A stretch of DNA of 64,000 bases from Thermoanaerobaculaceae bacterium (GCA_963717295.1 OY970330.1:7932822-7996821), one strand, 5' to 3'; shown: positions 40,672 through 64,000, numbered from the stretch's first letter. Program-made: numbers and translations. Notes: generated by a model from the letters alone, not told the origin.

Positions 40672-42270
40672 ATGGCGGTTTCAGAACAGAAGCATCGCAT
40701 TCTGATCGCCGATCAGCTCGATCCCTCCGGCCTCGGCCTCTTCGAAAAGGCGGGAGTCGAGATCCATCAGCTCACGGCGGAGGAGAGGCCCCGCCTGCCG
40801 GAGATCCTCGCCGACTTCGACGCCCTGGTGGTGCGCAGCTCGACGCAGGCCACGGCCGATCTGCTCAAGGCGGGCAAGAAGCTGAAGGTGGTGGGGCGCG
40901 CCGGCATCGGCGTCGACAACGTGGACGTGGCCGCCGCCACGGAGCTGGGCATCCTGGTGGTCAACGCCCCGACGGCCAACCTGATGTCGGCCACGGAGCA
41001 CACCTTCGCCCTCCTGCTCTCGCTCGCCCGGCGGGTGGGCGAGGCCGATGCCTCGATGAAGGCGGGAGAGTGGAACCGCAAGCTCACGGGTATCGAGCTC
41101 CAGGGCAAGACGCTGGGGATCATCGGCTTCGGCCGCATCGGCCAGCGGGTGGCGGACCGCGCCCGCGGCTTCGAGATGAAGATCCTGGCCTACGATCCCT
41201 TCCTCGACGCCGCCGCGGCCCGCCGTCTGGACGTGGAGCTGCTGCCGCTGGACGATCTGCTGGCCCAGGCGGACATGGTGACCCTCCATGTGCCGTTCAC
41301 CGAGCAGACGAAGAACCTGCTGAACGCGGGCCGGCTGGCGAAGATGAAGAAGGGCGCCCTGCTGGTGAACTGCGCCCGCGGCGGCGTGGTCGACGAAGCC
41401 GCCCTGCTGGAATCGCTGGAGGCCGGCCACCTCGGTGGCGCGGCCCTGGATGTCTTCGCCGAGGAGCCGCCCAGGGATCTGACGCTGGTGCGCCATAAGA
41501 AGGTCGTGGCCACGCCCCACCTGGGAGCGCAGACCCGCGAGGCCCAGGAAAGGATCTCGATCGAGACGGCCGAGATGGTGATCGCCGCCCTGGCCGGCTC
41601 GCTGGCCGTGGCGGCCGTGAACCTCCCCTTCCGGCCCACGGCCGCGGGGAGCCGGGTGGAGCCGTTCATGTCCCTCGGGGAGACCCTGGGCTGCATGGCC
41701 AGCTCGCTGCTGGGCGAGGCGCCGCAGCGTCTGCAGGTCGACGTCTGGGGGCTCGACGAGTCGCTGCGGGTACCGGTGACGGTGGCGGTGCTCAAGGGGG
41801 CGCTGACGCCGTTCCTGGGCGAGGCGATCAACTACGTGAACGCGGAGAAGATGGCCCAGAGCCGGGGCATCGAGGTGGTGCGTTCGGTCCACAGCGCCCA
41901 GGGCGATTACCCGCAGCTCGTCGACGTCACCCTTTCGGGCGGCGGCCGCAGCATCGAGCTGGGGGGAACGCTCTTCGGCGAACACGGCGACAGCGATCCG
42001 CGTGTCGTGCGCTTCGAGGGCTACCGGCTGGAGTTCCGTCCGGAGGGGAACCTGCTGGTGCTGGTCAACCTGGACAAGCCCGGCGTGGTGGGGAAGGTGG
42101 GCACGCTGCTGGCGGAGCACGACGTCAACATCGCGGACATTCACCTCTCCCGCCGTGGCAACGAGGCCCTCGCCGTTCTGCGGGTCGACCAGGAGCCCAG
42201 CCAGGATCTGGTGGAGAAGCTCGGCGCCCTCGCCGAGGTGAAGTCGGCGCGGCGGGTGCTGTTGGGGTAG
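40672..42270 (+). CDS. serA: D-3-phosphoglycerate dehydrogenase (with C-terminal ASB and ACT domains)
   Basis: NAD motif GIIGFGRIGQ, catalytic R/E/H residues of the 2-hydroxyacid dehydrogenase family, and a C-terminal ACT domain. Confidence 0.9.
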   Translation: MAVSEQKHRILIADQLDPSGLGLFEKAGVEIHQLTAEERPRLPEILADFDALVVRSSTQATADLLKAGKKLKVVGRAGIGVDNVDVAAATELGILVVNAPTANLMSATEHTFALLLSLARRVGEADASMKAGEWNRKLTGIELQGKTLGIIGFGRIGQRVADRARGFEMKILAYDPFLDAAAARRLDVELLPLDDLLAQADMVTLHVPFTEQTKNLLNAGRLAKMKKGALLVNCARGGVVDEAALLESLEAGHLGGAALDVFAEEPPRDLTLVRHKKVVATPHLGAQTREAQERISIETAEMVIAALAGSLAVAAVNLPFRPTAAGSRVEPFMSLGETLGCMASSLLGEAPQRLQVDVWGLDESLRVPVTVAVLKGALTPFLGEAINYVNAEKMAQSRGIEVVRSVHSAQGDYPQLVDVTLSGGGRSIELGGTLFGEHGDSDPRVVRFEGYRLEFRPEGNLLVLVNLDKPGVVGKVGTLLAEHDVNIADIHLSRRGNEALAVLRVDQEPSQDLVEKLGALAEVKSARRVLLG

Positions 42271-43811
42271 CTTTTAGATTTAGACAAACCTCTCCCTCTT
42301 CTCCCAGCCTCCCCCCCGGCCGCCGGGATGGGTGGCCCTTTTGCCATCATCTCCGAGAGAGGGGGAAGGTTCGCGAGGTCGATGTCCACGATATCCTTGT
42401 GGATCGTGATCCGCTTCAGGAGGCTCTCGACCACCCGGCGCTTCTCCGGGATGTCCATCGTCTGCCACTTGTCCGCGAGGTCCCGGGTTTGGCTCACGAT
42501 GTCCTCCTCCATGACGTTCCGGATTTTGAGGAAGTCGATCTCCCCCTGAAGGCGGGCGATCTCCCCTCCTAAGGCGGCGAGACGCTCCTCAAGGGGTCGG
42601 TGCTTCTCGCGGAAGCCATCGACCGAGAGGGCGTCCTCCTGGTAGAGGCGGTAGAGCTTGTCGGCCTCCTTCGTGAGCCGCTCCCGCTCCCGGAAGAGTG
42701 CCGAGAGAAGCTCCTCCCGCCCGGCGAGAACCTCCGCGCCCTGGGCGAGCCAGGCGGCGATGGCCTCAGGCGAGAAGGTGAATTCCCGGAGTTCGTCCCG
42801 GAAGAGGTTGTCGAGGTCCACGATCGGGATCTTCGTGTGGCAGGCCTTGCAGACGTACTTCGGGGTATTCGAGCGCACGTACATCTTCTCTCCGCAGGCG
42901 CAGTACGCGTAGCCCGCGAAGACGTAAACGGCCCGCTTCGCGACCGGTTTCCGGGAAGCCCTGCGCCCGAGAAGGAGCGCGTTGCACTGCTCCCAGAGTT
43001 CCTCGGAGACGATCGCCGGGCAGGGCACCCAGATCCACTCCGCCTCCGGCTTCTGGACCCTCTGGCCCTTGACGAGCCTCGTGTAGCTCACGCGGCGCAG
43101 GCCCTTCGCGGTCGGGTCCACGATGAGCTTCTCCACGGTCGTATCCCGGAAGAGCTTGCCCTTCCGGCCCCTATGGCCGGCCTGGTTCAGGATCTCTGCC
43201 ACGGTTTTGAGTCGCCGGTGCTCCTTGAAAAGCTCGTAGATGAGGCGGCGAAGCGGAGCCTCGTCCGGGCTTACCTCCAGGCGCTTGTCTACCCAGCGGT
43301 ACCCGAGGGGGGCGACGCCGCCCATGGGCTTCCCGAGCCGGGCGCGCACGGGGATCGAGGCCATGACCCGGGAGGCGATCTCCTCGCGCTCCCACTCGGC
43401 CATCGCCGCAATCATGGTGTAGAAGAGGCGGCCGTGCGGGGTCGAGGTATCGATCGACTCCTGGAGGGAGACGAGGTCCGCCCCGTGCTCCCGGAAGAAC
43501 TCGGAGAAATCCAGGAGTTCCTTCGTGTTCCTCGCGAGTCTCGCGAGCTTCGAGAAAATGAGGCCCGCGATCCGCCCGCGGCGCACGTCGGCCATCATCC
43601 GCCTTGCCTCCGGGTGCTCCATGACGGACTTGCCGGAGACGCCTTCGAGGCGGTAGACCTCGCGGACCTCCCAGAGGCGGGACTCCGCGTAGCTTTTGCC
43701 CCGCATCTCGTGGTGCTGCGGGCTCTCGCCCTGGGCCTGGTCTTCGGTCGAGACCCGAATCCAAACGCCCACGGGCTTTGTCTCAGCCCTCGGATCGTTC
43801 GCGCGTTCCAT
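42141..43811 (-). CDS. large serine recombinase (phage-integrase type)
   Basis: N-terminal resolvase domain VGVWIRVSTEDQ (catalytic Ser), recombinase domain, zinc-ribbon Cys cluster (CACGEKMYV..YVCKAC) and coiled-coil. The ORF lacks a stop until 42141, so its last ~43 codons overlap the serA 3' end on the opposite strand. Confidence 0.85.
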   Translation of the reverse strand: MERANDPRAETKPVGVWIRVSTEDQAQGESPQHHEMRGKSYAESRLWEVREVYRLEGVSGKSVMEHPEARRMMADVRRGRIAGLIFSKLARLARNTKELLDFSEFFREHGADLVSLQESIDTSTPHGRLFYTMIAAMAEWEREEIASRVMASIPVRARLGKPMGGVAPLGYRWVDKRLEVSPDEAPLRRLIYELFKEHRRLKTVAEILNQAGHRGRKGKLFRDTTVEKLIVDPTAKGLRRVSYTRLVKGQRVQKPEAEWIWVPCPAIVSEELWEQCNALLLGRRASRKPVAKRAVYVFAGYAYCACGEKMYVRSNTPKYVCKACHTKIPIVDLDNLFRDELREFTFSPEAIAAWLAQGAEVLAGREELLSALFRERERLTKEADKLYRLYQEDALSVDGFREKHRPLEERLAALGGEIARLQGEIDFLKIRNVMEEDIVSQTRDLADKWQTMDIPEKRRVVESLLKRITIHKDIVDIDLANLPPLSEMMAKGPPIPAAGGEAGRRGRGLSKSKSYPNSTRRADFTSARAPSFSTRSWLGSWSTRRTARASLPRRER

Positions 43812-43919
43812 GCTCGTTCCTCCTTGGCGTTACAGGGTGGGGATTTTGGAAAAGGACTCCCGTCATGATGGAGGTCAGGCGCGCACGAAAAAAGGCGGCA
43901 GGTTCCGCCCCCTTCCGCC

Positions 43920-46913
43920 CTACGGCTTCTCCTTCTTCCCCATGCGCCTGAGACTCTTGCCGATAACATCTTTGAGCGCTTGGTAGCGGGCGGCCTCTTC
44001 TTCGGGATCGACCGGGGTGCGGCGGACCCTCACCTTGTATCCGCCGACGACCTTCTCCCTCGTTACGGGCCGCATGGAAAGCATCGTGAAGAGTTCCTCG
44101 GGCGAGAGGAAGTGCACCCGGGCGAGATCGGAGGGCGGGAGCTTGGCCTTCAAGGCGGCCTCGATCTTTTGAAGGCGCGGACGCTTCAAGGCCAGGATCG
44201 CGACCTCATGAAAGCCGGCCTCAAGGCACTTCAAGGCGTTTCCGACCTCTTGGGCCACGGTGGAGGTGACCGAGATCTCGCAGGCGAGCGAGAAGTCGTC
44301 GGTGCGAAGCGCCACATCGACCTTGCCTTTGCCCTCCGGGATCTCCTCCTCGACCACGGCGCGGTAGCCGTGGGACTCGCCCCAGCGCTTCACGAGTTCC
44401 TGGAGGTACTGGTGCTCGGGGCCGCCGCGCCCCAAGGGCGGGACGGGCTCCTCTTCACGCGTCGCTCTCTTCGGGGGCGGAGGCGGTTGCGGTGCAGCGG
44501 TCGGTATTGGCGCGGGAACTCGCGGCGCTTCCGGCTCTACCGCCGGAGGCGGAGCCTTGCGCGCCGGCTCCGCTCTCTGCTGTGTCTCCTCTCTCCTTAC
44601 GGCATACCGCTCCCGGGAGCGTGCGGCGACCCTCTCGCGCCGCTCTGTGGCGACCTCGGCCGGAACCGCCGGCAGGAGCCGGGTCGCGAGGTTGCAGTCG
44701 CCCTGGGAGTTGTCGATCCGCGCGATGGCCTCTCCGACCCTGAGGCTCGTGAGGTCGGCCGGTCCGAAGAAGGACAGTCCCTCAGAGAGAGCCTTCGCAT
44801 CCCGGTCGCCCACCCGGAAGGCGATGCGCGTGCCGGCGTTCCCCAAGAGTGCGGAGGAGACCTCCGGGGCCTTCGCTTCAAGCTGCCGGAGATCCTGATG
44901 GGCGAGGGTGAGCCCCAAGCCGTACTTCCTGGCTCCCGCAAGGAGCTGCGCCATCGAAGCGGTCGCGACCTCCTGGCACTCGTCGGCGTAGAGGAAGAAA
45001 GGCCGGCGCTCTTCCCGCTTCACCTCCTGCCGGCTCATGGTGATCTGGTGGAACTTGGAGACGAGGAGGCTCCCTAGGAGTGCGGCGTTCTCTTCGCCGA
45101 TCGCACCTTGAGAGAGTCTTGCGAGGAAGATCTGCCCCCGGTCTACGACGGAGCGCAGGTCGAGGCGGCTTTCCCTAGCCCCTACGATCTGGCGCACGGT
45201 TTTCGAGCGCAGGAAGCCATCGAGACGAGTGAGGATCGCGCCCACGCTTTTGCCGGCCGCAAGCTGGAACTCGTGCCGGAAGTATGAGGAGAGGTACGGA
45301 TCGTCCACTGCGGCGAGGAGCCGCTCTCGGGTCGGACGGTCCACCAGGAACTCCCTGAGATCAAGGAGGGTCGCGCCCGGCGTTTCGAGGAGCACCAGGA
45401 CCGCGTTCCCCAAGACCGAGGTCATCTGGTCGCCCCAGGAGGTCGAGAAGCGGCGGAAGATGCCTACGAGGTCCGAGGCGAGGAGCGTGCGCTCAAGCTC
45501 GGAGTGGGCTTCGAGGATGTTCCAGGCGAGAGGGTGTTCGGCATCGGCCGGGTCGAAGAGGATCGCGTCGCCCTGTCTCTCCTCGGGGATGCGTCCCAGG
45601 ATCTCGTCTACGAGATCGCCGTGGGGATCGAGGAGGGCGACTCCCCGGCCCGCCTCTATGTCCTGCGAAATGAGGTCGAGGAGGAGGGTTGACTTGCCGC
45701 TTCCCGAGGCGCCGATCACGTGCAGGTGCCGGAGGCGCAGATCATTCGGGAGCCTGACCGCCAGGGCTCGGCCGTGATGCAGGTTCTCGCCAAGGAGAAT
45801 CCCCGGGCCTTGAGACAGTGCGGGCGCCGCTTTCGAGCGCCGTATTTCCCTCTGGAGCTTCGGGACCCGGACCGAGGCGCTCGGCAGGTGGGCGAAGGCG
45901 GCAAGTTCGTCGCTTCCGAGGATCATTCCCGGCCGGCGCGAGGTGCGCGAGCAAATCTCCGCCATAGCCTCTCCGCCCTCAAGGGTGGCGAGAGGCAGAA
46001 GCTCGTTCCCGGCGGGAGTGCCGAAATGAGTCAGGGCGCCCGCGAGATCGCGGACGATGCGCCAGGCACCGGTCGTGTCCGTGCTCTTCGCGGCCACCCG
46101 GAGACAGGCGGCAAAGAGCGGGCGGGAGACCTTCTCCCGCGCCTGCTTCGTGAGTTCGGGGTAGTCCACAAAGATGGGCTCGCCGCCAGGAGCCACGACC
46201 GACCGCATGACGCTCTCGGTCCAGGGCTCCCTTACCCGCTCAAAGAGGACTTGCACGAGCCCCGCCTCCCCGGGCTCAAGCTCGGCCATCGCTCCAAAGA
46301 GCGGTAGCAAGGGGTCAGGATCGAGGGAGCGGAAGGAGGCCAGGGGCAGCATGAACTCGCGCGCCAGGCCGAAGTGGAGGAGGACGGTTTCGCCTTGCTC
46401 CCTCGTCCATGCCTCACGCAGTCCCTCCGGCTCCGCTTGGACCCCGACTTCGGGGAAGAACGCGCGGAGCTGGTTTCCAAGAAGCGCGGCATCCGGCACG
46501 CGGGAGATCACTTGTACCTTGAGGCTCTCGGGGAGCCCTACGATCTCGAAGGCGAGCGGCAGCTCCGCGGCGGAGAGGGCGAGGAGGAAGCGCTCGGCGC
46601 TTTCCGCTTTGACCGCCGCTTCAGAGGGCAGTGAGACCGCACACTCGACGAGCGCTTCGTCGCTCTCGAAGGTCTCCGGTTCCGGCTCCTCGGTCTCCGG
46701 TATCGCGGGCTCCGGCCGGCGCGGCGCGAAGAGGCGCCCCAAGAGTCCCGGCCGGTGGCCGTCGTCCTGGGCTCGGGGAAGAAAGTATCCGGGAAAGGGA
46801 CGGAAGGGCGGCTCAAGAGCGACCGGCCAGGGAAACTCCTGCCAGCCGCGCCCCCTCAGTTCCCAGGCATAGAACTGCTCGGTCAGGCGATCGGGCAGGG
46901 ACGGTTCAGGCAT
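43920..46913 (-). CDS. TraD/TrwB/HerA-like conjugative P-loop ATPase with a C-terminal nuclease-like domain (997 aa)
   Basis: Walker A HVIGASGSGKST and Walker B FLYADECQE; LLDPHGDL motif shared with T4SS coupling proteins. Pro-rich linker, then a C-terminal ~150 aa segment (KGKVDVAL...ACEIS) that resembles a PD-(D/E)xK core. Confidence 0.55.
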   Translation of the reverse strand: MPEPSLPDRLTEQFYAWELRGRGWQEFPWPVALEPPFRPFPGYFLPRAQDDGHRPGLLGRLFAPRRPEPAIPETEEPEPETFESDEALVECAVSLPSEAAVKAESAERFLLALSAAELPLAFEIVGLPESLKVQVISRVPDAALLGNQLRAFFPEVGVQAEPEGLREAWTREQGETVLLHFGLAREFMLPLASFRSLDPDPLLPLFGAMAELEPGEAGLVQVLFERVREPWTESVMRSVVAPGGEPIFVDYPELTKQAREKVSRPLFAACLRVAAKSTDTTGAWRIVRDLAGALTHFGTPAGNELLPLATLEGGEAMAEICSRTSRRPGMILGSDELAAFAHLPSASVRVPKLQREIRRSKAAPALSQGPGILLGENLHHGRALAVRLPNDLRLRHLHVIGASGSGKSTLLLDLISQDIEAGRGVALLDPHGDLVDEILGRIPEERQGDAILFDPADAEHPLAWNILEAHSELERTLLASDLVGIFRRFSTSWGDQMTSVLGNAVLVLLETPGATLLDLREFLVDRPTRERLLAAVDDPYLSSYFRHEFQLAAGKSVGAILTRLDGFLRSKTVRQIVGARESRLDLRSVVDRGQIFLARLSQGAIGEENAALLGSLLVSKFHQITMSRQEVKREERRPFFLYADECQEVATASMAQLLAGARKYGLGLTLAHQDLRQLEAKAPEVSSALLGNAGTRIAFRVGDRDAKALSEGLSFFGPADLTSLRVGEAIARIDNSQGDCNLATRLLPAVPAEVATERRERVAARSRERYAVRREETQQRAEPARKAPPPAVEPEAPRVPAPIPTAAPQPPPPPKRATREEEPVPPLGRGGPEHQYLQELVKRWGESHGYRAVVEEEIPEGKGKVDVALRTDDFSLACEISVTSTVAQEVGNALKCLEAGFHEVAILALKRPRLQKIEAALKAKLPPSDLARVHFLSPEELFTMLSMRPVTREKVVGGYKVRVRRTPVDPEEEAARYQALKDVIGKSLRRMGKKEKP

Positions 46914-46930: not shown

Positions 46931-47611
46931 TCAGCTCCTCCTGCCGCGTGGCTCAAAGGTTATCTTACGCGCCTCCTCGGAGAGTCCGCGCACGCCTTGG
47001 GCCGTGGTCACTTGGTCGATGGCCTCCGTGACCGCGTGATGCACCGATTCCCGGAACATGATTGCGGTGTCCTCGTTGAAATATGTGGCCGGACGGAAAA
47101 TGAGACCGTAGACGAAGCCCGTAATCGGCATCGAGAGGACGGTGGGCTCAAGGCCGCGGTCCCCGTAGCGGACGAGGAAGCCGAGAGCGAGAAGGAGGCC
47201 AAAGAAAAGGATGGGCTTGAGGAGGAGCCCGGCGCAGCCAGGGCTGGGTTCGACTCCCTCAGTACCCCCGGACATACTCCGGTAGAGGAGGTATCCCACG
47301 AAGAGACAGACGAAGATGAAGAGGAGATCGAGGAGCACCCTTGAGATCTTTGCGAGCCACCAGGAGAAGAAGTACCCGGTGCCGAAGGGCGCGGCGCAAA
47401 TATCGAAGTTCAGGCCCTCGCGGCTTACCCGGAGATACACCCGCTTCCCCGCACCGAGGCCGCCCTGTTTCCATTCCACCTGGGAGATATTGAGGTCGGG
47501 GATCTCCCGCCGGGCGATGCCGGCTTTGACCAGCTCGTAGAAGTCCAGGGATGAGGTCGAGAACCCCTCAATCAGGCTGTGCCAATGACCCTCCACCTGC
47601 GGCTTGCCCAT
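46931..47611 (-). CDS. hypothetical membrane protein
   Basis: Central TM helices (LLDLLFIFVCLFVGYLLY, ILFFGLLLALGFLV). Directly upstream of the 997-aa ATPase. Confidence 0.45.
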   Translation of the reverse strand: MGKPQVEGHWHSLIEGFSTSSLDFYELVKAGIARREIPDLNISQVEWKQGGLGAGKRVYLRVSREGLNFDICAAPFGTGYFFSWWLAKISRVLLDLLFIFVCLFVGYLLYRSMSGGTEGVEPSPGCAGLLLKPILFFGLLLALGFLVRYGDRGLEPTVLSMPITGFVYGLIFRPATYFNEDTAIMFRESVHHAVTEAIDQVTTAQGVRGLSEEARKITFEPRGRRS

Positions 47612-47832
47612 GGCTTGGCTCCTTTCCGAGACAGATGTCTATATCTATAAGTGTACGGAGGAGAGGGGCTTGGTGTCCAGTGCAGGCGTAGTCATTTGAC
47701 CCTCGCAGTTGAGGGGAAGATGGGTATGCCGCGCGCGCGGAGGCACATCTTCCTTCGCGCCCGTTACTATGGCCGGAGCCGCGTCCTTTCGACCGAGCCG
47801 CACGTAGATATCCAGCTTCTGAGAATAGCCCA

Positions 47833-48306
47833 TCATGCCCGATCTACTAGCGCCGCAGCGAATCCCAAGGCGTCGAAGACGTTCATGCGGGCGTCCTCTG
47901 TCGTCCAAGCCTTGCGCTTCCTGGGGAGTCGCTCGGCGAGGGCCGGAAAGATCTCCGCGAGCCGGAGTGCCACCTCAAACTTGCTCTTCCCGGGCGCGAA
48001 GGCGTCTCTGACCCCAAGGCGGGACATCCGTTCCGTTGCCAGCCCTCGCTTCAGTGCCAGGAGTTCAATCGAGCGGATCTCCTTACCTGCTCGCTTCCGG
48101 CGTCGGCCGCCAGGGGCGGCAAGATCTTCGATCACGAGCAGGGTGGGCTCGTAGCGCGAGAGTAGCTCGTCCACCTTGCGAAGCAGACCGCCAGTCTTTG
48201 CGGGTACGACCCTCTCGCCCCAATCCACAAGGAAATTAGGCGGTTCGAGGACAGCAAAGGCGAAGCCCCTTGAGGTCGGATCTATGGCGAGAATGGTTTT
48301 TGTCAT
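47833..48306 (-). CDS. RuvC-like (RNase H-fold) resolvase-family protein, paralog 1
   Basis: MTKTILAIDPTSRGFAFAVLE...LLVIEDLAAPG resembles the RuvC/YqgF N-terminal motif IxGIDPG...hhhE. Paralogous to 62149..62649. Confidence 0.5.
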   Translation of the reverse strand: MTKTILAIDPTSRGFAFAVLEPPNFLVDWGERVVPAKTGGLLRKVDELLSRYEPTLLVIEDLAAPGGRRRKRAGKEIRSIELLALKRGLATERMSRLGVRDAFAPGKSKFEVALRLAEIFPALAERLPRKRKAWTTEDARMNVFDALGFAAALVDRA

Positions 48307-48307
48307 C

Positions 48308-48625
48308 TCACACTGCATGGCGAGAAGCAGAGCCGACTCTCTGCCGTTTCTCTTCCTTCGCTTCGAGTCTCCGCCGCCGCTTTGCGACTTGCTCCGCGAT
48401 CTCCTCGCATCTGCCGCGGAAGAGCGTGCAGACGGGGACGCCAAGAGCGGCCTCGTACGCAAGCCCGGTCTCAAGGGAAGGCGTGCGGTTCCCGGATTCG
48501 TAGCGCGACACCTTCACGCCCGTAGAGGCGCCGAGGAGATAGGCAAGCCGCGCCTGAGTCAGATGGGCGTGGCGGCGATAACTGCGGAGGTAGTAATTAA
48601 GTGGCCGTCGTTGAATGTGTTTCAT
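48308..48625 (-). CDS. XRE-family helix-turn-helix regulator
   Basis: LTQARLAYLLGASTGVKVSRYESGNRTPSLETGLAYEAALGV, an HTH_XRE motif. Confidence 0.7.
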   Translation of the reverse strand: MKHIQRRPLNYYLRSYRRHAHLTQARLAYLLGASTGVKVSRYESGNRTPSLETGLAYEAALGVPVCTLFRGRCEEIAEQVAKRRRRLEAKEEKRQRVGSASRHAV

Positions 48626-54970: not shown

Positions 54971-54992
54971 AACTCAAACGAGGATCTCCAAA

Positions 54993-56099: not shown

Positions 56100-56102
56100 G
56101 AG

Positions 56103-56429
56103 ATGGTAACCATTATCGGAATCAGTGCGTCGTCGGGTAGGGCGAAAGGCACTGCGAAGTGGATTCACACTGCTGAAGATCTTGAGGCATTTCAGGTTGG
56201 CGATATCCTGCTTGCCAAAATGACATCTCCTGATTGGGGACAGATCTTTCAAAAGGCAGGAGCAGTTGCGACAGAGCAAGGAGGGATGCTTTGTCACGCT
56301 GCGATCGTTGCCAGAGAGGAAGGAATTCCTGCTGTAGTAGGTCTCGGAGATGAGCTGGCGCAGATTCAGAATGGTACAGTGGTTACGGTGGATGGTGATG
56401 AAGGTACGGTGGAAGTAGAGATTGCTTGA
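56103..56429 (+). CDS. stand-alone PEP-utilizing enzyme mobile (phosphohistidine swivel) domain protein
   Basis: GGMLCHAAIVAREEGIPAVVGLG matches the PEP-utilizers signature (phospho-His in GG..SHAAIvARE.GiPaVvG). 108 aa. Confidence 0.65.
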   Translation: MVTIIGISASSGRAKGTAKWIHTAEDLEAFQVGDILLAKMTSPDWGQIFQKAGAVATEQGGMLCHAAIVAREEGIPAVVGLGDELAQIQNGTVVTVDGDEGTVEVEIA

Positions 56430-56460
56430 AGTAGCCGTCGAGTAGGCATATCATCAAACC

Positions 56461-57042
56461 ATGAAAGGAACGCAAATGGCCAGCATAGAAGTGTTATATG
56501 AGGGTTACGTTAAGGAAGGCGATGGTGGTGACATCGTGCGCAACACTGTCTGCCTCGTGCTGGATGATAACGTGAAGATGGTTGTCGATCCTGGTCTCGT
56601 AGAATCGCCGAGCATCCTGCTCAATGCGCTTGGGCGCTTCAATCTAACTGCTGACGACATCACTCACGTCTATGTGACTCACTATCACATGGACCACGTA
56701 CGCTATGTCGGTCTCTTTGCAAAGGCTATCGTAGTCGACTACAAATATTTCTATGATGGCGAACTATGGGGTGAGCACGAAGGAGATGGGCATTCGATAA
56801 CTAAGAATATCCGAATACTTCATACTCCCGGCCATACGCTGGACGACTCCGCGCTCCTGGTAGATACCGAAGATGGAGTAGTTGCAATTTCGCATATCTG
56901 GTGGTTTCAAGACAGAACACCTGAGGATGACCCAATGGCAACTGACCAGAGTCTTCTTGACGCCTCTAGAACCAAAGTGGAGGCAGTGGCTCAATGGATT
57001 ATTACGCCACACGGTGGCAGAATCGAGATCACGAAGAAGTAA
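56461..57042 (+). CDS. MBL-fold metallo-hydrolase
   Basis: THYHMDH (HxHxDH) plus downstream His/Asp ligands (HTPGHT, D..ALL). Confidence 0.7.
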   Translation: MKGTQMASIEVLYEGYVKEGDGGDIVRNTVCLVLDDNVKMVVDPGLVESPSILLNALGRFNLTADDITHVYVTHYHMDHVRYVGLFAKAIVVDYKYFYDGELWGEHEGDGHSITKNIRILHTPGHTLDDSALLVDTEDGVVAISHIWWFQDRTPEDDPMATDQSLLDASRTKVEAVAQWIITPHGGRIEITKK

Positions 57043-57493
57043 ATGACACTAGTCCAAGGAAACAAACAGGAAGGTATCGGAAGTGCTGATGCAAGTGTCG
57101 GGGAGGAGCCCCCCCCGCGCTTGCTGCTCGTCCGAGAATGTTCCCGATCTTGCTCGGCGACAGTTAGGCCTGTGCATAAGAAGTAGTTGATGCCAGAGTA
57201 GGCACACTCTTCCCAGGATCGACGGCGAGGCAGCCGTCCGAAGCGGGGGAAAGGTCCAAGCCATCGCCGGGGAAGTAGACGAGCCTGCTTACTGATGGAC
57301 TGTACTGGTCTGCCGCTGCTACCAGCCGGTCCCGAGGAAGATTGGCGCTTCGCGAACCGGGCGATCTGCATCCATTGGGGGAGAAGGATTCGGGTCGAGA
57401 CCCTTCCTAGACTGCCAAGCTGTTGCGAACTTACATTGAGATATCCCTCTTAGCCGATTTCCGGTTTAGATATCAGGGCTGTAGACTATGTAA

Positions 57494-60073
57494 ATGCCGA
57501 CTTCCCCAGACGTTTCGACTGAAATTCTCCAATGGTCGCAGGATCGCCCCGGTTGGCAACGGGACGCACTTCGGCGGCTTCTCTCGACAGGAGAGATTTC
57601 AACCACCGAGATCGATCAGCTCCTTCTCCTGTGCAAGGCGGCCAGGGGACTTGCGCAGCCCACCTCTCCCAATGTCCTCACCCGGAGCCATCTTCCTACC
57701 AAGAGCACCGGCGGGGACTCGACCTCGTTGGTTACTCTGACCCACCATTGCGGCGCGAACGCCTTGGCGTCCGAACAAACCATCGCATTCGGCCCACGCC
57801 TCACGATCGTCTATGGCCAGAATGCCGCGGGCAAGTCAGGCTACACAAGAATTCTCAAACAGGCATGCCGGTCGCGGGCCACTGAAAAGATTCTGGGCGA
57901 TCTTCTCAGCGGTGCATCGCCGGTGAAACTACAGGCCACAATCTCGTTCCGGCACGGCGCCGAGGAAACTCCAACGCTGTGGGCAATGGGCGATCCGCCT
58001 TCGGATGCTCTTGCGGCGGTTAGTGTATTCGACTCGGGCTGTGCGCCGGTTTATCTCCGGGATAAAACCGATGTCGCCTTCCGTCCCTTCGGCCTTGATA
58101 TATTCGACCGGCTGGCTTCCCTTTGTAGCGAACTGCGCAATCGACTCGAAAGCGAGAAGGTAAAGCTGAACATGCTCGCCTCGCCACTTCCGACATTTGC
58201 TGAGGCAACGAAGGTCAGATTCTTTATTGATCATCTGTCTTCCCTCACGAAACCGGAAGACCTTAGAAGCTTGGCCATCCTCTCGTCCACTGAGAGAGCA
58301 CGCCTTGAAGCGCTGCGAGGACACCAGCGTGATCTTCTCTCCGCCGATCCTAAGGCCCGGGCCAGGGAGCTAACCTCAAGAGCCGACCGTGTTGACTTAC
58401 TCAAGCGGCATATAGCGGATCTATTTGCGGTTCTACGGGGAAGCGCGCTATCAGATCTTCAAAAGTCGGCTGAGGCACTTCGGGCGGCGCAAGCATCACT
58501 CGCTCTCTTGAGGACTACAGCATTAACCCCCGACTTGCTTCCTGGCACAGGAGAGGAGAACTGGCGGAAGATGTGGGAAGCAGCCGAGGGATTCTCAGGA
58601 ATAGCTTATCCCGACTCCCCCTTTCCCGCTCTGACAGATGATGCGCGATGCCCTCTCTGTCAGCAGGAGATAGGCGTGGAGGCTGAAGCACGACTTCGGC
58701 ATTTTGCCGAATATGTCGCATCAACGGCTCAAACGCGAGTACGCGAGGCGGAGAGAGCATATGGAGCGTCTCTTTCCCTGTTAAACCAAGCGGTGATTGT
58801 CCGGCCCGATATTGAGTTGGCGATTAGCGAGCTCCGCCTAGAGAATGAGCAACTTGCCCAGAGCGTCCAAGGCTTCTTGCAAAACGCTGGACAAACTCGA
58901 AAAGGGATCAATGAAGCTCTAGCACAAGGCGTGGGATTCTTGGCAAGCGTGGTCCAGAGTCCCGAAGCGGAATTGCAGGCAGCTGCCTTGAGCCTTCGCG
59001 AACGAGCCAAACAACTATTGGCCGAGCAGCCAACGATGAATCCCGAAGCTATAAGCGAGCTGAAGGAGCTAGAGGCCCGTTTGACCCTTGGCGAGCATAT
59101 GGACGCTGTCCTTGAGGCGATTGAACGCAAAAAGCAATTGGCGGCCTACGAGCTGTGCCTATCCGACACGACAACCCAAGCAATAACTCGGAAGAGTACG
59201 GAGTTGACAACCCAATTGGTGACAGATCAGCTCAAGGCTGGATTCCAGGAGGAGTTGAAGGCTCTAGAGTTTAATCATCTCGCTGTTGCGGTCCAGCCAG
59301 CGGGAGGCGCCAGAGGAACGCTGTTTCACCGGCTTATCTTCACCAACGCACCAGGAGTCACTATCACCAATGTACTTAGCGAGGGAGAGTCGAGGACTCT
59401 TTCGCTCGCTTCTTTCCTCACAGAGCTAAAGACCGCCGAGAGTCGCTCCGCAATCATCTTTGACGACCCCGTTTCTTCGCTGGATCATATGTGGCGGGAG
59501 AGAATAGCTCGAAGACTTGTCGCAGAAGCTGCGACGCGTCAGGTCATCGTGTTTACTCATGACATTCTCTTTCTAAGATTCCTCGCAGACGAAGCGACAA
59601 GGTTTGGCGTAGACTGCAAGCATCAATATATCCAGCGTGACACTCAGGTCGGTATATGCACGGAAGACCTCCCGTGGATTGCCATGAATACCTCTGCCCG
59701 TATCAGAAGAATGCGGGAGCGCTATCAGGAAGCCGAGAAGCTCTTCCGCACCTTCCCCGAGAAATACGAGGACGCGGCTCGCGGTATTTATCGCCTCCTT
59801 CGAGAGGCATGGGAGCAAGCAACCACAGAAGTTCTCCTCAACGATGTTGTTCAGCGATATCGTCCGAGCATCGAGACCAATAAAGTAAGGCTTCTACATG
59901 ATATTACTCCTGATGACTGCAAGGCGATCGAAGCAGGAATGACAGAGTGCTCACGTTGGCTCCACGATCAGCCTGCCGCCGACGGCACCCCTTTTCCAAG
60001 GCCAGATGCCCTCAAAAGCCGGATTGATGACCTTGACGGATTAGTGAAAGCCATTAAAAAGCGACGCCCTTAA
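57494..60073 (+). CDS. large ABC/Rad50-like ATPase with a coiled-coil CxxC zinc hook; RloC/PrrC-like candidate anticodon nuclease (859 aa)
   Basis: Walker A GQNAAGKSGYT, long coiled coil containing DARCPLCQQEI (zinc-hook-like), ABC signature LSEGESRTLSLA, Walker B AIIFDDP, H-loop VFTHD, then a ~170-aa C-terminal domain containing R..E...H spacing. Confidence 0.45.
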   Translation: MPTSPDVSTEILQWSQDRPGWQRDALRRLLSTGEISTTEIDQLLLLCKAARGLAQPTSPNVLTRSHLPTKSTGGDSTSLVTLTHHCGANALASEQTIAFGPRLTIVYGQNAAGKSGYTRILKQACRSRATEKILGDLLSGASPVKLQATISFRHGAEETPTLWAMGDPPSDALAAVSVFDSGCAPVYLRDKTDVAFRPFGLDIFDRLASLCSELRNRLESEKVKLNMLASPLPTFAEATKVRFFIDHLSSLTKPEDLRSLAILSSTERARLEALRGHQRDLLSADPKARARELTSRADRVDLLKRHIADLFAVLRGSALSDLQKSAEALRAAQASLALLRTTALTPDLLPGTGEENWRKMWEAAEGFSGIAYPDSPFPALTDDARCPLCQQEIGVEAEARLRHFAEYVASTAQTRVREAERAYGASLSLLNQAVIVRPDIELAISELRLENEQLAQSVQGFLQNAGQTRKGINEALAQGVGFLASVVQSPEAELQAAALSLRERAKQLLAEQPTMNPEAISELKELEARLTLGEHMDAVLEAIERKKQLAAYELCLSDTTTQAITRKSTELTTQLVTDQLKAGFQEELKALEFNHLAVAVQPAGGARGTLFHRLIFTNAPGVTITNVLSEGESRTLSLASFLTELKTAESRSAIIFDDPVSSLDHMWRERIARRLVAEAATRQVIVFTHDILFLRFLADEATRFGVDCKHQYIQRDTQVGICTEDLPWIAMNTSARIRRMRERYQEAEKLFRTFPEKYEDAARGIYRLLREAWEQATTEVLLNDVVQRYRPSIETNKVRLLHDITPDDCKAIEAGMTECSRWLHDQPAADGTPFPRPDALKSRIDDLDGLVKAIKKRRP

Positions 60074-60079
60074 GGCGCT

Positions 60080-61615
60080 CTAGTCGCTTAGGCTAATGCT
60101 TCCATTGTTCCCTTGGGAACTGACAAGCATCAGCATTAACTGTCGCAGAAGCTTATCCCAAGTTCGAGGTACGTCTCGGTGTGGGGCACCAGACCAATTT
60201 TTTACCCGCTCGGCAACTAGTTTCGCTTCCGGAAGCGCTGTAAAATCAATCGTCTTTTGATTCACTTGCCAGTTCGAGGTGAACAGAGCGACCAATTCGC
60301 GCTTTTCATCGTTCGTGCCCGATTGATACAGAGAATACGCGGAATCCAGCCGTTCGAGGAATTCGGTGAGCTTCTTCGGTCCGCTCCGCTCCGGATCGTC
60401 CAACGCAGCAAGCTTCTCTTCGAGCGCCTGCTTTTCGGCAATGAGTGCCGCCTTCCGTTCCTCGAAGAGATCGCGGTCGAGGAGCCCGTCCACCACCGCA
60501 TCGGCGAGGCGTCCGCGGCGCACCGCAAGCTGGCTGAGTTGCAGTTCAATCGTCTTTCTTTCTCTGGTCGCGTCATCCTCTTGGGTTGCCGTGAGGCTCC
60601 CGATCTTCTCGCGAATGTAGTCTCGCTCCTCCGGATCGAGCTGGCCGGCTTGAAGGAGCGGGGTGAGCTTCACCTCCGGCCCGTCCTCCCGCACGCTCGT
60701 GGTCGGACAGGTTCTCGTGTGGCAGCGGTAATAGACGTAGCCCTTCTGTCGCTCGCCGATCAAGGCATAGCCGCAACCTGTGCAATGGAGCGTCCGCCGG
60801 AAGAGGAAGTCGTGCATCACAGGCCGTGCGGAGAGCTTGCCGTCTAGGGCGGCCTGCACTCGCTCGAAGAGCGACCGCGAGATCAAGGGCTCATGAATGC
60901 CCTCGTAGACCTCGCCGCGCCGCTTGATCTTGATGAGCCCTACGTAGAAGGGATTGCGGAGAATGCCCGCGAGGCTGTTGATTGAGACCTCGCGGCCCAG
61001 GCGGTTCCTGAGGCCCTGCCGGTGCAGCTCCTCTTGGAGGGTGTGCAGGGTGTATCTGCCGGTTGCATAAAGCTCGAAGGCCCGCCGCGCGAGCGGCCCC
61101 TTCAAGGGATCGATTGTCTTTGGCTTTCCCGCGCCGCAGTCCAGGTATCCAATCGGCGCCTGCATCGGGAAGATGCCCTGACTTAGGCGCCCGTTGATGC
61201 CCTTCAAGGTCTCCTCGCGGAGATTGCGGATGAAGTCGGCGGCGACAACGGCCTGGATGTCGGCCGACAGGCGCCCGCCTCGGGTTTGGAGGTCGAGCGT
61301 CTCGTTTACGAAATGCACGGCGACGCCGCGGTCGATGAGTTCGCCGAGTTCCGCCCAGTCCCGGAGGTTCCGGGCACTGCGGTCAATCTTGTGGATCAGG
61401 ACCCCTTTGGCTTTGCCCTGCCGCAAGAGCCGGAGCATCTCCGTCCACTCCCGTCGGCCGCGCTTGGCGGCCGTCTCCCGCTCCTCAAACCAGCGCGCGA
61501 CCTCGAAGTGATTGCGCTCCGCAAAGCGCTCGATCGCGGCTCGCTGTTCCTGAAGCGAGACATGGCGCTCGCCTTGTCGGGGCGTCGAGACGCGGATATA
61601 TCCATAGAACATCAC
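60080..61615 (-). CDS. large serine recombinase (second copy, distinct sequence)
   Basis: YGYIRVSTPRQ (catalytic Ser in the resolvase domain), recombinase domain, Cys cluster CTGCGYAL...YYRCHTRTC, and a C-terminal coiled-coil. Confidence 0.85.
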   Translation of the reverse strand: MMFYGYIRVSTPRQGERHVSLQEQRAAIERFAERNHFEVARWFEERETAAKRGRREWTEMLRLLRQGKAKGVLIHKIDRSARNLRDWAELGELIDRGVAVHFVNETLDLQTRGGRLSADIQAVVAADFIRNLREETLKGINGRLSQGIFPMQAPIGYLDCGAGKPKTIDPLKGPLARRAFELYATGRYTLHTLQEELHRQGLRNRLGREVSINSLAGILRNPFYVGLIKIKRRGEVYEGIHEPLISRSLFERVQAALDGKLSARPVMHDFLFRRTLHCTGCGYALIGERQKGYVYYRCHTRTCPTTSVREDGPEVKLTPLLQAGQLDPEERDYIREKIGSLTATQEDDATRERKTIELQLSQLAVRRGRLADAVVDGLLDRDLFEERKAALIAEKQALEEKLAALDDPERSGPKKLTEFLERLDSAYSLYQSGTNDEKRELVALFTSNWQVNQKTIDFTALPEAKLVAERVKNWSGAPHRDVPRTWDKLLRQLMLMLVSSQGNNGSISLSD

Positions 61616-61616: not shown

Positions 61617-62051
61617 TCATTTTGGTGTGGTTTCTTTTGAGGAATCGACCTTTCCTGCCATGCTAGGACAGGAGGCGTGACTCGTCAACGTGAGGAATCG
61701 CTCGTATTCCTTTGGGTCGCTTGAGATCCGCTCATACATACGGACGATCAATGCGGCGTAGCTGGTGTACCAAGTATCAAGCGACGCATATTCGGCCTCG
61801 GTGAAGCCGGGAAACATTTTCTTCAAACTCGCGAGCGCTGGCGTGGGCGTGACATCCGGCATGGAACGGAGCGTACTTGCCAGATGCGACGCGCAAAAGG
61901 CGCCGGCCGCCGCGTGCTTCGTTTTCTCTCTCAGAGTAAAACCCTTCGTGCATCGGACATAAAACCGATTTGTTAGCCAAGGCGGAAACTTTTGCCGTCT
62001 TTTTTCCTGTAACGGGGACGATACCCTGAGACCCGCCATGAGCACGATCAT
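61617..62051 (-). CDS. hypothetical protein upstream of, and overlapping, the recombinase start
   Basis: Protein-like composition; 2-nt gap to the recombinase ATG. Start uncertain. Confidence 0.3.
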   Translation of the reverse strand: MIVLMAGLRVSSPLQEKRRQKFPPWLTNRFYVRCTKGFTLREKTKHAAAGAFCASHLASTLRSMPDVTPTPALASLKKMFPGFTEAEYASLDTWYTSYAALIVRMYERISSDPKEYERFLTLTSHASCPSMAGKVDSSKETTPK

Positions 62052-62148
62052 CGCGCGGTCTCGCTTTTCAATACTCCTCCCCGACATCCGCGCGGGTCCT
62101 CTGCGTTTTTTTAAGCACGCAGTCATCACTAACCACCACCCTCTTTCT

Positions 62149-62649
62149 ATGTCACAAACTCCTACCCACCCGACTCGCATCTTCGCCTTGGACCCCACGA
62201 CCAAAGGCTTTGGCTACGCCGTCCTTGAACTGCCTTTTCGCCTCGTCGATTGGGGCCTTGCCCATGTCTCCGGCGAGAAGGAATCCGGCGCCGTCGCCCG
62301 CTTTGAGGCGCTTCTTGATCAGTTCCGGCCGGATCTAGTGATCCTTGAGGACTCTGCAGCCCCCGGCTCGCGCCGCCGCCCCAGGGTGCGCAAGCTCTTG
62401 GGCACGCTGGTAGAGACCTCTCGCGAGCGCGGCATCGAGGTACAGGCTCTCCCGCGGCTCGCCGTCATCGAGTGCTTCTCCTCGCCGGACGAGCGCGCCA
62501 CGAAGTACTCGATCACCAAGCGCCTTGCCGAGACCTTCCCGGAACTCGCCGAGAAAGTGCCGCAGCGCCGCAAGATCTGGCAGAGCGAGGACGAGCGCAT
62601 CGCGACCTTTGACGCCCTGGCCTTGGCGGTGACCTACGCGATGAAGTAG
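62149..62649 (+). CDS. RuvC-like (RNase H-fold) resolvase-family protein, paralog 2
   Basis: MSQTPTHPTRIFALDPTTKGFGYAVLE...LVILEDSAAPG. Paralog of 47833..48306, with a conserved C-terminal ...AE.FP.LAE..P..RK.W..ED.R...FDAL motif. Confidence 0.5.
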   Translation: MSQTPTHPTRIFALDPTTKGFGYAVLELPFRLVDWGLAHVSGEKESGAVARFEALLDQFRPDLVILEDSAAPGSRRRPRVRKLLGTLVETSRERGIEVQALPRLAVIECFSSPDERATKYSITKRLAETFPELAEKVPQRRKIWQSEDERIATFDALALAVTYAMK

Positions 62650-62768
62650 CAGTCACACCGCAAAGGTACGAGTCACGCAAGACGGCTCCGGGAGCCGTCT
62701 TTTGCGTTTTGATTCCGGCCTCTACTCTGACCGCAGAACCTCACAATCTGAGAAGAAAGGAGGATGCG

Positions 62769-63719
62769 ATGTCACAGGGTTTCGTGTCGTTTGCGGAGGT
62801 GAAGCGTGCGGTCACAATGGAAGCGGTCCTTGTCCGCTACGGACTCAAGGAGATCCTCGTTCCCAAGGGCAAGAATCTCGCAGGGCTGTGTCCCTTCTGC
62901 AAGGGGAAGTCAGCGCGGCAGTTCCAGGTGAATCCCGTAAAGAACGCCTGGTACTGCTTCGGCTGCAAGGCGGGCGGGAACATCCTGGATTTCGTCGCGA
63001 AGCACGAAGGGGTGAGCGTACGCACCGCGGCCTTGAAGCTCAATTCCTGGTTCGAGCTCGGGCTCGCGGAAGAAGCAGAGAAACCTTCGGCGCCTTCCGC
63101 CCCCGCCGAGACGCCAAAGGTCGCTGAGGAGCCACCTCCCGCCGCCGAGGAGACCTTGCCCGCCGAAAATCCGCCCCTCACCTTCACCCTCAAAACCCTT
63201 GACCCGAACCACGCGGAGCTTGCAGCCCTGGCGCTCAGGACGGAGACCATCGAGCGTTTCGGCGCGGGGTACTGCTCGAAAGGACTCCTCAAAGGCCGGC
63301 TTGCGATCCCGATCCACGGCGACCGCGGGGAACTCTTGGCCTACGCCGGCCTTGCGGTCGAGGAGGGCGAGACCCCGCGGTATCTCTTCCCGCCGAAGTT
63401 CCACCCGCCTCTCGAAGTCTTCAACCTGCATCGCCTGATCGATGTCGCCGAGGAGACGGGACCGCTTTATCTTACGTCCGAGATCGAGGGGGTCCTCAGG
63501 CTCGCCGAAGAGGGAGTCGCCTCCGCGCTTGGCCTTTTCGACGGGTCGCTTTCCCCGAAGCAGGAAGAGACGATCGTGGGCGCCCTTTCGCTCTACGAGG
63601 GCTTCCTCCTCGTGGGCGAGGGCTTTGAAGACCGCACGATCGCCCGCCTCGCGCGCTACGCGACGGTGTCCTGGGTTCCCGATCTCCCCGCGCAATCGGC
63701 GACCGGCGTCTCCGCCTAG
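62769..63719 (+). CDS. DNA primase-like protein with N-terminal CHC2 zinc finger
   Basis: CPFCKGKSARQFQVNPVKNAWYCFGCKAGGNILDFVAKHEGVS, the DnaG-type CHC2 zinc-binding motif. The C-terminal part may be a degenerate Toprim. Confidence 0.55.
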   Translation: MSQGFVSFAEVKRAVTMEAVLVRYGLKEILVPKGKNLAGLCPFCKGKSARQFQVNPVKNAWYCFGCKAGGNILDFVAKHEGVSVRTAALKLNSWFELGLAEEAEKPSAPSAPAETPKVAEEPPPAAEETLPAENPPLTFTLKTLDPNHAELAALALRTETIERFGAGYCSKGLLKGRLAIPIHGDRGELLAYAGLAVEEGETPRYLFPPKFHPPLEVFNLHRLIDVAEETGPLYLTSEIEGVLRLAEEGVASALGLFDGSLSPKQEETIVGALSLYEGFLLVGEGFEDRTIARLARYATVSWVPDLPAQSATGVSA

Positions 63720-63837
63720 TCCGCCCTCCCGACTTACCCCGCACCAAAGAACCTCTTGGCCCGAAACCAACCCCGACCATCGCGGTCGGCTGCGGTCGAG
63801 CTGTGTCACGACGCAGGTCACATGAGAAGGAGTCCCT

Positions 63838-64000
63838 ATGCACCGTAAAGCCACGGTGACCTCATATTTCGACACGAGGGTGAGCGTTCCGATGATCCGC
63901 CTCCGCGGCCGGTGGCTCATGCGTGCCGGTTTCCGTAAAGGCGATGCCCTGCGGATCGAAGTCGTGGAAGGGCGCCTGATCCTCACCCGACCCGGAGATC
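63838..64000 (+). CDS. SymE-like (AbrB-fold) toxin-family protein, 3' end cut by window edge
   Basis: RBS GAGAAGGAG. MHRKATVTSYFDTRVSVPMIRLRGRWLMRAGFRKGDALRIEVVEGRLILTR resembles the SymE/SpoVT-AbrB swapped-hairpin motif. Confidence 0.45.
   Translation, partial: MHRKATVTSYFDTRVSVPMIRLRGRWLMRAGFRKGDALRIEVVEGRLILTRPGD

Follow-up and report, generated by a model that had tools for sequence, protein, structure and literature searches.

We analysed a 64,000-nt stretch of the genome of a Thermoanaerobaculaceae bacterium (GCA_963717295.1, OY970330.1:7932822-7996821; hereafter the window) and found, between the housekeeping genes serA and ddl of this soil Acidobacteriota bacterium, an island that is very likely a single 23,196-bp integrative, probably mobilizable element running from position 42329 to window-equivalent position 65524. 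The element belongs to an undescribed family that is common and widespread in soil Acidobacteriota (Thermoanaerobaculia), and it inserted by serine-recombinase chemistry into a palindrome resembling repetitive extragenic palindromes (REP-like) in the serA-ddl spacer. Its backbone is a conserved unit with two anciently diverged paralogue pairs (TrwB-like ATPases and RuvC-like genes) and two types of large serine recombinase (LSR1 and LSR2). It is an LSR-type integrative and probably mobilizable element, of a kind for which a dual-recombinase and dual-ATPase backbone is unusual. The interval between its relaxase gene and LSR2 is hypervariable, and in relatives this slot is occupied by known anti-phage systems.

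Host locus and attachment sites

Left of the insertion stands an intact host serA (40672-42270, + strand; D-3-phosphoglycerate dehydrogenase, 532 aa, starting MAVSEQKH), with the Pfam domains 2-Hacid_dh_C, PGDH_inter and ACT all complete and with 65-94% identity to the serA of about 20 Thermoanaerobaculia genomes (best match 94%) in a scan of species-representative genomes, which places the host in a Thermoanaerobaculia lineage. In 12 Thermoanaerobaculia relatives ddl is the next gene after serA, at a distance of 26 nt to 2.6 kb, and nothing similar to window 42.3-64 kb or its extension was found downstream of serA in any of 17 relatives. Because relatives run from serA to ddl and none of the 17 holds homologous DNA, we regard the region as an insertion between these two genes. 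A preliminary description of the window had placed an integrated mobile element beside serA and proposed to look for the empty site in related genomes; both points are borne out, with 12 relatives carrying serA and then ddl without element DNA and the element absent from every relative examined. L003, L005, L007 and L013 have no ddl within 10 kb of serA and may therefore carry further insertions at this spacer.

The same description had the element running past the window end, which it does, by only 1,524 bp. The window was extended with a 24.5-kb Logan metagenome contig (L001, run ERR11594404), found by exact-protein look-ups, which spans window 41155 to window-equivalent 65651, i.e., 1.65 kb beyond the window end, and is identical to the window except for one homopolymer at ~62360 (C5 in the window, C3 in Logan).

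Both junctions fall in one host palindrome, which is intact after serA in L009 and L012 (CAAACCTCTCCCTCTTCTCCC - loop - GGGAGAAGAGGGAGAGGTTTG). At the left junction, the window keeps its left arm, its loop and the first 4 nt of its right arm (GGGA); this segment (42283-42328) is the B half of attL and corresponds to the undisrupted palindromes that follow serA in L009, L012 and L003, and host homology stops at 42328. The insertion point is thus inside the palindrome, ~55 nt past the serA stop codon, with the common core of attL, CCGGGA (42323-42328), at 53-58 nt past that codon. The P' half-site of attL, TGGGTGGCCCTTTTGCCA (42329-42346), comes next and is the inverted partner of the P arm TGGTAAAAGGGCAAC on the attR side (window-equivalent 65497-65511, on L001). 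At the right junction, L001 has the same hexamer CCGGGA as attR core (window-equivalent 65519-65524, beyond the window), then the right arm of the palindrome, a spacer of ~100 nt and ATGGCCCACGTCGGAGTCGTCTTTGGA, which encodes MAHVGVVFG, the start of ddl (ATG at window-equivalent 65627).

Reconstruction of the parental sites from these halves restores the palindrome as an empty attB, CCCCCCCGGCCGCCGGGAGAGAGGGGAGCCAAACGG, which can be aligned collinearly with the undisturbed spacers of L009 and L012. The corresponding attP junction sequence is GGTAAAAGGGCAACTCGTCTCCCGGGATGGGTGGCCCTTTTGCC, with inverted arms TGGTAAAAGGGCAAC and TGGCAAAAGGGCCAC that match at 13 of 15 positions and stand 16 nt apart with the core in the centre. 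The 6-bp core, the paired attP arms, the restored host palindrome and the hybrid nature of attL and attR were all found for LSR1, and the attP geometry is typical of a serine integrase site. The preliminary description had taken the first recombinase open reading frame (ORF), which runs into serA, to mark the junction, and this ORF indeed overlaps antisense serA by 130 nt. The att site, which it had expected in the serA 3' terminus, is not there: serA is complete, and the site is the palindrome in the spacer. Its proposed search for direct repeats matching the serA 3' end is unsuited to a serine integrase, for which the shared core here is only 6 bp, and no long direct repeats were found.

The palindrome family is the attB of the LSR1 clade at no fewer than two loci, i.e., at least at serA-ddl here and beside a cysS-like gene in L103. 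The right arm of the L103 element, whose proteins are close to those of the window element (primase 88%, SymE 83% and RHH, a ribbon-helix-helix protein, 92% identity), ends ...GGTGGTAAAAGGGCAACTCGTCCCCC/GGGAGAAGAGGGAGGGG and adjoins a further palindrome copy; the Logan extension has this element-side sequence too, and the attR of L103 carries the same P arm as that of the window element. REP-like, G/C-rich palindromes of this family (CCTCTCCCTCTTCTCCC ... GGGAGAAGAGGG) occur in intergenic spacers of Thermoanaerobaculia, with copies at window 42283-42328, at L001 18024-18060 and also in L003, L009, L012 and L103.

The terminal recombinase, LSR1 (42141-43811, - strand), has Resolvase (111.9 bits) and Recombinase (61.3 bits) domains, and its native part comprises 494 aa (42330-43811). 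Thirty LSR1 homologues are conserved through ...LPPLSEIMA(N/K)GPxxP to residue 494, beyond which their tails (0-90 aa) are unrelated, so that conservation in the family ends at codon 42330-42332. Because it stops there, independently of host homology ending at 42328, we place the crossover at the extreme 3' end of the LSR1 ORF. No stop codon precedes the crossover, and the C-terminal tail is therefore encoded by the attL flank; the final 62 codons, which extend into antisense serA, are read-through into host DNA and not native protein. LSR1 has 556 aa in the integrated state and would have 537 aa when excised, while its homologues have 494 to 583 aa. A C-terminal tail rewritten upon integration might allow the protein itself to sense whether the element is integrated or excised. 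A non-exhaustive literature search yielded no description of such an arrangement, with the crossover in the 3' end of the recombinase's own ORF.

Mode of movement and the structured region

The element encodes two TrwB/TraD-like P-loop ATPases, each with a Walker A motif, which share 40% identity over ~400 aa in the NTPase domain (E 6e-76). The larger (997 aa; 43920-46913, - strand; TrwB_AAD_bind 58 bits, with a faint DUF8128 N-terminal region) belongs to the conserved terminal block next to LSR1, and copies with 82-90% identity lie beside LSR1 homologues in L089, L091, L095 and L101. The smaller (426 aa; 50429-51709, + strand; TrwB_AAD_bind 35 bits) consists of the NTPase domain only and is 85-92% identical in ~30 metagenome loci. 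It precedes a Replic_Relax protein (51757-52764, + strand; PF13814 80.4 bits; PHROG 'replication initiation by nicking'), a putative MOBC-class relaxase. No type IV secretion system (T4SS) gene and no phage structural gene was found among all ORFs of the fully delimited element. PF13814 has been equated with the CONJscan MobC class, and integrative mobilizable elements (IMEs) that carry a relaxase and their own coupling protein are known, with serine recombinases as an accepted integrase type (Coluzzi et al. 2017, PMC5357655). Given these precedents and the lack of a T4SS, the gene content is probably best read as that of an integrative mobilizable and not a conjugative element. A conjugative nature, which the preliminary description had also allowed for, is unsupported: the delimited element has no T4SS component and its ATPases have no membrane anchor. 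On a Sulfitobacter plasmid, an LSR is likewise paired with a TrwB-like ATPase.

We propose that LSR1 would excise the whole unit as a circle, which the primase, the RuvC-like proteins and the Replic_Relax (MOBC-type) protein would replicate or nick. The TrwB-like ATPases, with no T4SS of the element's own, would then serve transfer by hijacking the mating pore of another element, as in an IME; an origin of transfer (oriT) and/or a regulatory leader may be contained in a structured region of ~490 nt, and cargo would be exchanged through homologous recombination between conserved flanks.

This structured region (49930-50428, + strand) is non-coding and conserved, and is a candidate oriT, folded single-stranded DNA (ssDNA) or leader RNA. 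The 499 bp before the gene for the 426-aa ATPase are conserved more strongly than the neighbouring proteins. In a 24-locus alignment, they form 26 helices with 153 pairs, in which 91.8% of cells are paired, compared with 39-48% in slid controls, and double-sided changes were counted at 34 pairs and in 120 cells (14-21 and 19-28 in slid controls); none of 500 shuffles reached these values. The best helices pair 50044-50062 with 50119-50137 (six covarying pairs) and 50276-50290 with 50400-50415, the latter engaging the purine tract GGGGAAGAGAGG located 18 nt ahead of the start codon. Among the paired columns, exceptions read on the + strand were G.U in 195 cases and A.C in 76, which indicates that the + strand folds, a figure that does not tell RNA from single-stranded DNA. 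A search of 49930-50428 against Rfam on both strands gave no match at E<=1. An ORF at 49868-50176 (- strand) lies in the structured region and was rejected as spurious. For the candidate oriT that the preliminary description had listed without coordinates, this region is the best candidate, and it is equally a candidate for a regulatory leader RNA. It may represent a new large structured RNA or a folded transfer-strand, ssDNA or oriT element that controls the ATPase-relaxase operon. The relaxase and oriT of an IME would be represented here by the protein with the PF13814 match of 80.4 bits and by the structured region adjoining its operon.

A phage satellite or phage-inducible island (PICI/P4-like), which would hijack the capsid of a helper phage and not a conjugative pore, would share several of these traits: a length of ~23 kb, an integrase, a primase, Xre and sigma regulators and a defence hotspot. 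P4-like satellites, as Rousset et al. reportedly described in 2022, have such gene content, including a hotspot of defence genes. Both ATPases match PHROG 5156 and, weakly, the large-terminase P-loop, and neither has a membrane anchor. However, no capsid, portal, small-terminase, Sid/Psu-like or other structural gene was detected in the element, and PHROGs gave only primase, RuvC-like, nicking-initiator and unknown-function ATPase families. The presence of a putative MOBC-type relaxase and the chiefly plasmid-borne distribution of the ATPase family (287 plasmid vs 15 phage records) also argue against this lifestyle, which has no positive support and which we consider unlikely.

A conserved backbone with two paralogue pairs

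The backbone of the integrative element runs in the order LSR1, 997-aa ATPase, p226, RuvC-like gene, helix-turn-helix (HTH) regulator, sigma, p78, 426-aa ATPase, relaxase, cargo, LSR2, RuvC-like gene and primase. We scanned metagenomes with the 426-aa ATPase, which lies between the two halves of this order, and mapped all element proteins onto the resulting 80 loci. L101 and L095 carry LSR1, the 997-aa ATPase, p226, p161 (the first RuvC-like gene), HTH, p78, the 426-aa ATPase and the relaxase, and L103, L099, L110 and L114 carry p161, HTH, sigma, p78, ATPase, relaxase, cargo, LSR2, p156, p203 (the second RuvC-like gene) and primase. L093 has a distant LSR1-like recombinase (56%) together with a recombinase in the LSR2 position (30% to LSR2), and the distant, compact L174 (56% and 51% identity) combines the two LSR types with the two ATPases, a RuvC-like gene and p226. 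LSR2 homologues with 91%, 85% and 72% identity stand in the context primase, p203-like gene, small ORF, LSR2, variable cargo, Replic_Relax, 426-aa ATPase and p78, while LSR1 homologues stand in a terminal block of p226, a ~1000-aa ATPase and LSR1, followed by host DNA, at differing chromosomal sites. The relative in L174 (1599-18927, ~17 kb) has its LSR2-type and LSR1-type recombinases facing outwards at its two ends and the dikinase cassette (see below) as its sole cargo, in a gene order circularly permuted relative to the window element.

LSR2 (60080-61612, - strand; Resolvase 93.3 bits, Recombinase 62.8 bits) is the internal recombinase. The preliminary description had noted two distinct large serine recombinases in the same orientation, and both are indeed on the minus strand (42141-43811 and 60080-61612). 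They are 28% identical over 318 aa (E 6e-15), each with an RVST motif and with resolvase catalytic and Recombinase domains. Zn_ribbon_recom scored 24.5 bits in LSR2, just below the 25.3 cut-off, and LSR1 has no Pfam match for a zinc ribbon, though cysteine pairs can be seen in the alignment of the two proteins. LSR2 has >5,400 homologues and keeps its place between the cargo and the p156/p203/primase block, and its homologues finish at a natural C-terminus, unlike those of LSR1. No recombination sites of LSR2 were identified, and the slot borders carry no conserved site-like sequences. LSR2 may function as a second integrase, together with LSR1, or as a resolvase.

A pair each of LSRs, ATPases and RuvC-like genes would also be expected if two related, independent elements had integrated in tandem, as the preliminary description suggested, one with LSR1 (42.3 to ~49.5 kb) and one with LSR2 (~49.5 to 65.5 kb), and with a separate att pair for each. 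Left of p78 the LSR2-type loci L083 and L085 cease to be homologous, LSR1 terminal blocks adjoin varied upstream DNA, and an ancient fusion of two elements could account for the paralogy. However, a single LSR1-type attL/attR pair brackets all 23.2 kb, and no att-like arms with <=2 mismatches were found inside 42329-65524, including 48.6-49.0 kb and 61.6-62.1 kb, where a second att had been supposed. The combined order recurs in independent contigs (L093, L095, L099, L101, L103 and L110) and in the distant compact L174, and the identities of the two halves track each other. The natural C-terminus of LSR2 homologues, in which they differ from LSR1, and the slot borders without conserved site-like sequences likewise argue against a tandem. 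Because the joint order recurs, internal att-like arms are lacking and LSR2 has its natural C-terminus, we interpret the duplicated modules as ancient paralogues in one conserved element. A tandem or composite origin is thus unsupported, already largely refuted and, in our estimation, quite improbable, while the internal duplication proposed as its alternative holds as ancient paralogy only (28-42% identity).

An immobile, decaying genomic island with inactive recombinases would agree with the fact that no excised form has been seen, with the LSR1 C-terminus altered by read-through and with one backbone gene frameshifted in one assembly. In the window, however, no backbone ORF is disrupted, the two att halves are complete and symmetric, and near-identical backbones (85-95%) occupy differing sites in other genomes (serA, cysS or a Bmp operon), which makes decay very unlikely. 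Least probable of all is a self-transmissible integrative and conjugative element (ICE), since the TrwB-like ATPase, relaxase-like protein and integrase it calls for are present, but with both ends defined and all ORFs accounted for, there is no VirB4/TraU, VirB6, VirB8-10, TcpA/FtsK-type translocase or pilus gene, and 23 kb including 7 kb of cargo leave no room for a T4SS.

Several observations weigh against a single, probably mobilizable element. No excised form was seen: the attP junction had no match in a collection of viral and mobile genetic element contigs. The right junction was taken from the metagenome contig L001, with its 2-nt homopolymer difference, and not from the source genome. 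The LSR2-type relatives L083 and L085 carry DUF932 after p78 and not the sigma/HTH/p161 block. A hydropathy scan found no N-terminal transmembrane (TM) anchor of the VirD4/TrwB kind in the 426-aa ATPase and one marginal segment in the 997-aa ATPase, and related ATPases are mostly on plasmids typed non-mobilizable; the conjugative-mobilization step is weakly founded.

The remaining genes of the left half are all on the minus strand. p226 (46931-47611), a membrane protein with two predicted TM helices, is always upstream of the 997-aa ATPase and may be a split membrane anchor for it, the ATPase itself being without TM helices. It is followed by p63 (47645-47836), a small ORF called on the Logan contig and without a family match, by p161 (47833-48318; 70-84% identical in L095, L099, L101, L103, L106, L110 and L114), by an Xre-type HTH regulator (48308-48625, 105 aa; HTH_31 and HTH_3) that is kept in relatives, by a Sigma-70 region-2 protein (48982-49464, 160 aa; Sigma70_r2 only, 29.7 bits; 85-88% identical in L103, L110 and L114) and by p78 (49515-49751), a small backbone ORF 57-95% identical in at least 15 loci. 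Right of LSR2 come p156 (61617-62087, - strand), a small ORF co-transcribed with LSR2 and conserved in its C-terminal half only, and p203 (62038-62649, + strand), whose true start is probably internal, near 62149. They precede a CHC2 zinc-finger/DnaG-type primase-like protein (62769-63719, + strand, 316 aa; Zn_ribbon_DnaG 56.6 bits, TIGR01391, PHROG 47 DNA primase 4.9e-23) and a SymE-like small protein (63838-64038, + strand) cut by the window end at 64000; on L001, beyond the window, lie the RHH gene (64292-64477, - strand) and p133 (64718-65119, + strand). The C5/C3 difference at ~62360 frameshifts p203 in the Logan assembly and could be an assembly error or phase-variation-like heterogeneity.

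Profile matches confirmed the two TrwB-type ATPases, the Replic_Relax protein, the Xre regulator, the sigma factor and the CHC2 primase-like and SymE-like genes of the preliminary description, and the genes it named are present at or near the positions it assigned them. Its paralogous RuvC-like pair stands as a pair (p161 and p203 are 42% identical, E 5e-39), while the RuvC label is weakly supported: it comes from a PHROG 159 match at E 4.9e-6 to p203 only, and neither protein had a Pfam or PDB sequence match for it.

Cargo slot and relation to known systems

The low-GC cargo block (52967-60073; 48-58% GC vs ~68% in the host) was absent from the preliminary description. In 17 related loci the slot, taken from the Replic_Relax stop codon to the LSR2 stop codon, contains 60 predicted ORFs in 57 clusters. 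Its occupants in relatives include Gabija (GajA 1.9e-238, GajB 1.9e-213), CBASS cyclases with endonuclease, phospholipase and SAVED-HNH effectors, a type III methylase with ResIII, AriA-, mad- and AbiL-like ATPases and Prok-E2, and in further loci SIR2-TPR with a kinase, AbiEii and NYN/HATPase/DndB/SNF2. Slot homology ends exactly at the flanking stop codons, without conserved site-like sequences there, and the simplest mechanism for cargo swapping is therefore homologous recombination between the flanks. In the window, the second cargo is an AAA_13 ATPase (57494-60073, + strand, 859 aa) that matches the PADLOC candidate defence system model PDC-S06 over its full length (PDLC04891, 691 bits, E 6e-208, residues 9-858 of 859); in the literature searched, anti-phage activity of PDC-S06 is only predicted.

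The first cargo is a cassette of four genes (52967-57042, + strand) conserved in L172-L175. It encodes a PPDK_N ATP-grasp domain, identified by profile match, fused to an alpha/alpha-toroid (52967-54970, 667 aa), p368 (54993-56099, 368 aa, no Pfam domain), a PEP-utilizers swivel domain (56103-56429, 108 aa) with the catalytic His (His65) in GGMLCHAA intact, and a metallo-beta-lactamase (MBL) hydrolase (56476-57042, 188 aa) with an intact HYHMDH motif; none of the four proteins has a PADLOC match. The p368 family is rare: a set of 5.8 billion proteins contains only 46 clusters of it, dispersed among Thermoanaerobaculia, Rhodoferax, Planctomycetes and Chryseobacterium. The full-length ATP-grasp-toroid fusion, clustered at 50% identity, is represented by three sequences in 1.84 billion proteins. 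The AlphaFold model of p368 (pLDDT 94.5) is all-alpha, and Foldseek found no fold match in the PDB (best E 0.14). The cassette is kept in a planctomycete island beside a tyrosine-integrase fragment, where an isochorismatase replaces the MBL gene, and one related element has it in its other, second variable region.

The cassette may be an unrecognised anti-phage system built on phosphotransfer of the phosphoenolpyruvate (PEP) synthase or pyruvate phosphate dikinase (PPDK) type, its occurrence in defence hotspots being the sole argument for a defence role. No dikinase-type defence system was found in the searchable literature. Like PEP synthase, PPDK and rifampicin phosphotransferase-type dikinases, the cassette combines a PPDK_N ATP-grasp with a phospho-histidine swivel whose catalytic His is intact. 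It differs from them in that its domains are split over genes, the ATP-grasp is fused to an alpha/alpha-toroid, and an all-alpha third partner without known-fold relatives and an MBL or isochorismatase hydrolase are added. That the cassette is an anti-phage system, that the 490-nt structure is an RNA or transfer-strand element controlling the ATPase-relaxase operon and that the LSR1 tail could sense the state of the element is, taken together, a tentative proposal that we think rather less likely than its failure in some part.

Two serine recombinases acting together are encoded by the ccrA and ccrB genes of SCCmec, adjacent in one operon. As there, the window element has two divergent LSRs conserved together and an insertion beside a conserved housekeeping gene, but its LSR genes are 16 kb and 14 genes apart in differing transcription units. 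Known defence hotspots include hotspot 5 of the SXT ICE and those of P2 and P4. Pipolins are also mobile elements with defence hotspots (PMC11551731). In all of these, as here, conserved backbone genes flank a hypervariable anti-phage set, while here the backbone family and the host phylum are others and one relative holds the cassette in a second variable region. With streptococcal IMEs (PMC5357655) the element shares its own integrase and att sites, a coupling-type ATPase and the lack of a T4SS, and its putative relaxase is of the PF13814/MobC class, which that catalogue also includes. It differs in its Acidobacteriota host, its two LSR types, its two TrwB-like ATPases without membrane anchors, its primase, RuvC-like genes, 490-nt structured region and defence hotspot, and in that its transfer is a prediction. 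In relation to phiC31, Bxb1 and the LSR catalogue (Durrant et al. 2022, PMC10083194), it is alike in the domains, in the attP inverted repeat round a short core, in the integrase gene beside attP and in having only a few bp common to attP and attB, whereas here the crossover is inside the 3' end of the LSR1 ORF, with tails giving 556 aa integrated and 537 aa excised, and the target is a REP-like palindrome present at several loci.

Elsewhere in the window, a second strain-specific island (32700-39500) carries a bacteriophytochrome, a heme oxygenase, a HicA toxin fusion and other genes; in eight relatives, window 25-32.7 kb is directly joined to the gene at 39.5 kb. In L008 (11568-21567, compared with window 2696-15571), serA directly precedes a block found 25-40 kb before serA in the window, an adjacency that reflects either rearrangement or misassembly of a metagenome-assembled genome. 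A low-GC segment (5700-8000, 57-60%), whose ORFs have no Pfam matches, has no counterpart in L008, where the block is collinear in other respects.

Hardly any mobile elements have been characterised from Acidobacteriota, a phylum that is dominant in soil and poorly represented in culture, and the element described here is a fully delimited example with att sites defined to the base pair. Its REP-like palindrome target explains insertion at several loci, its reconstructable attP/attB pair stands for a new LSR clade and is a possible tool for genome engineering, and its 490-nt structure adds a candidate for a new non-coding element linked to DNA transfer. Recombinase homologues of the family number in the thousands in soil metagenomes, and the family serves as a vehicle for defence systems (Gabija, CBASS, restriction-modification and PDC-S06); its cargo slot is a practical place to seek new ones, with the rare dikinase-like cassette as the first candidate.

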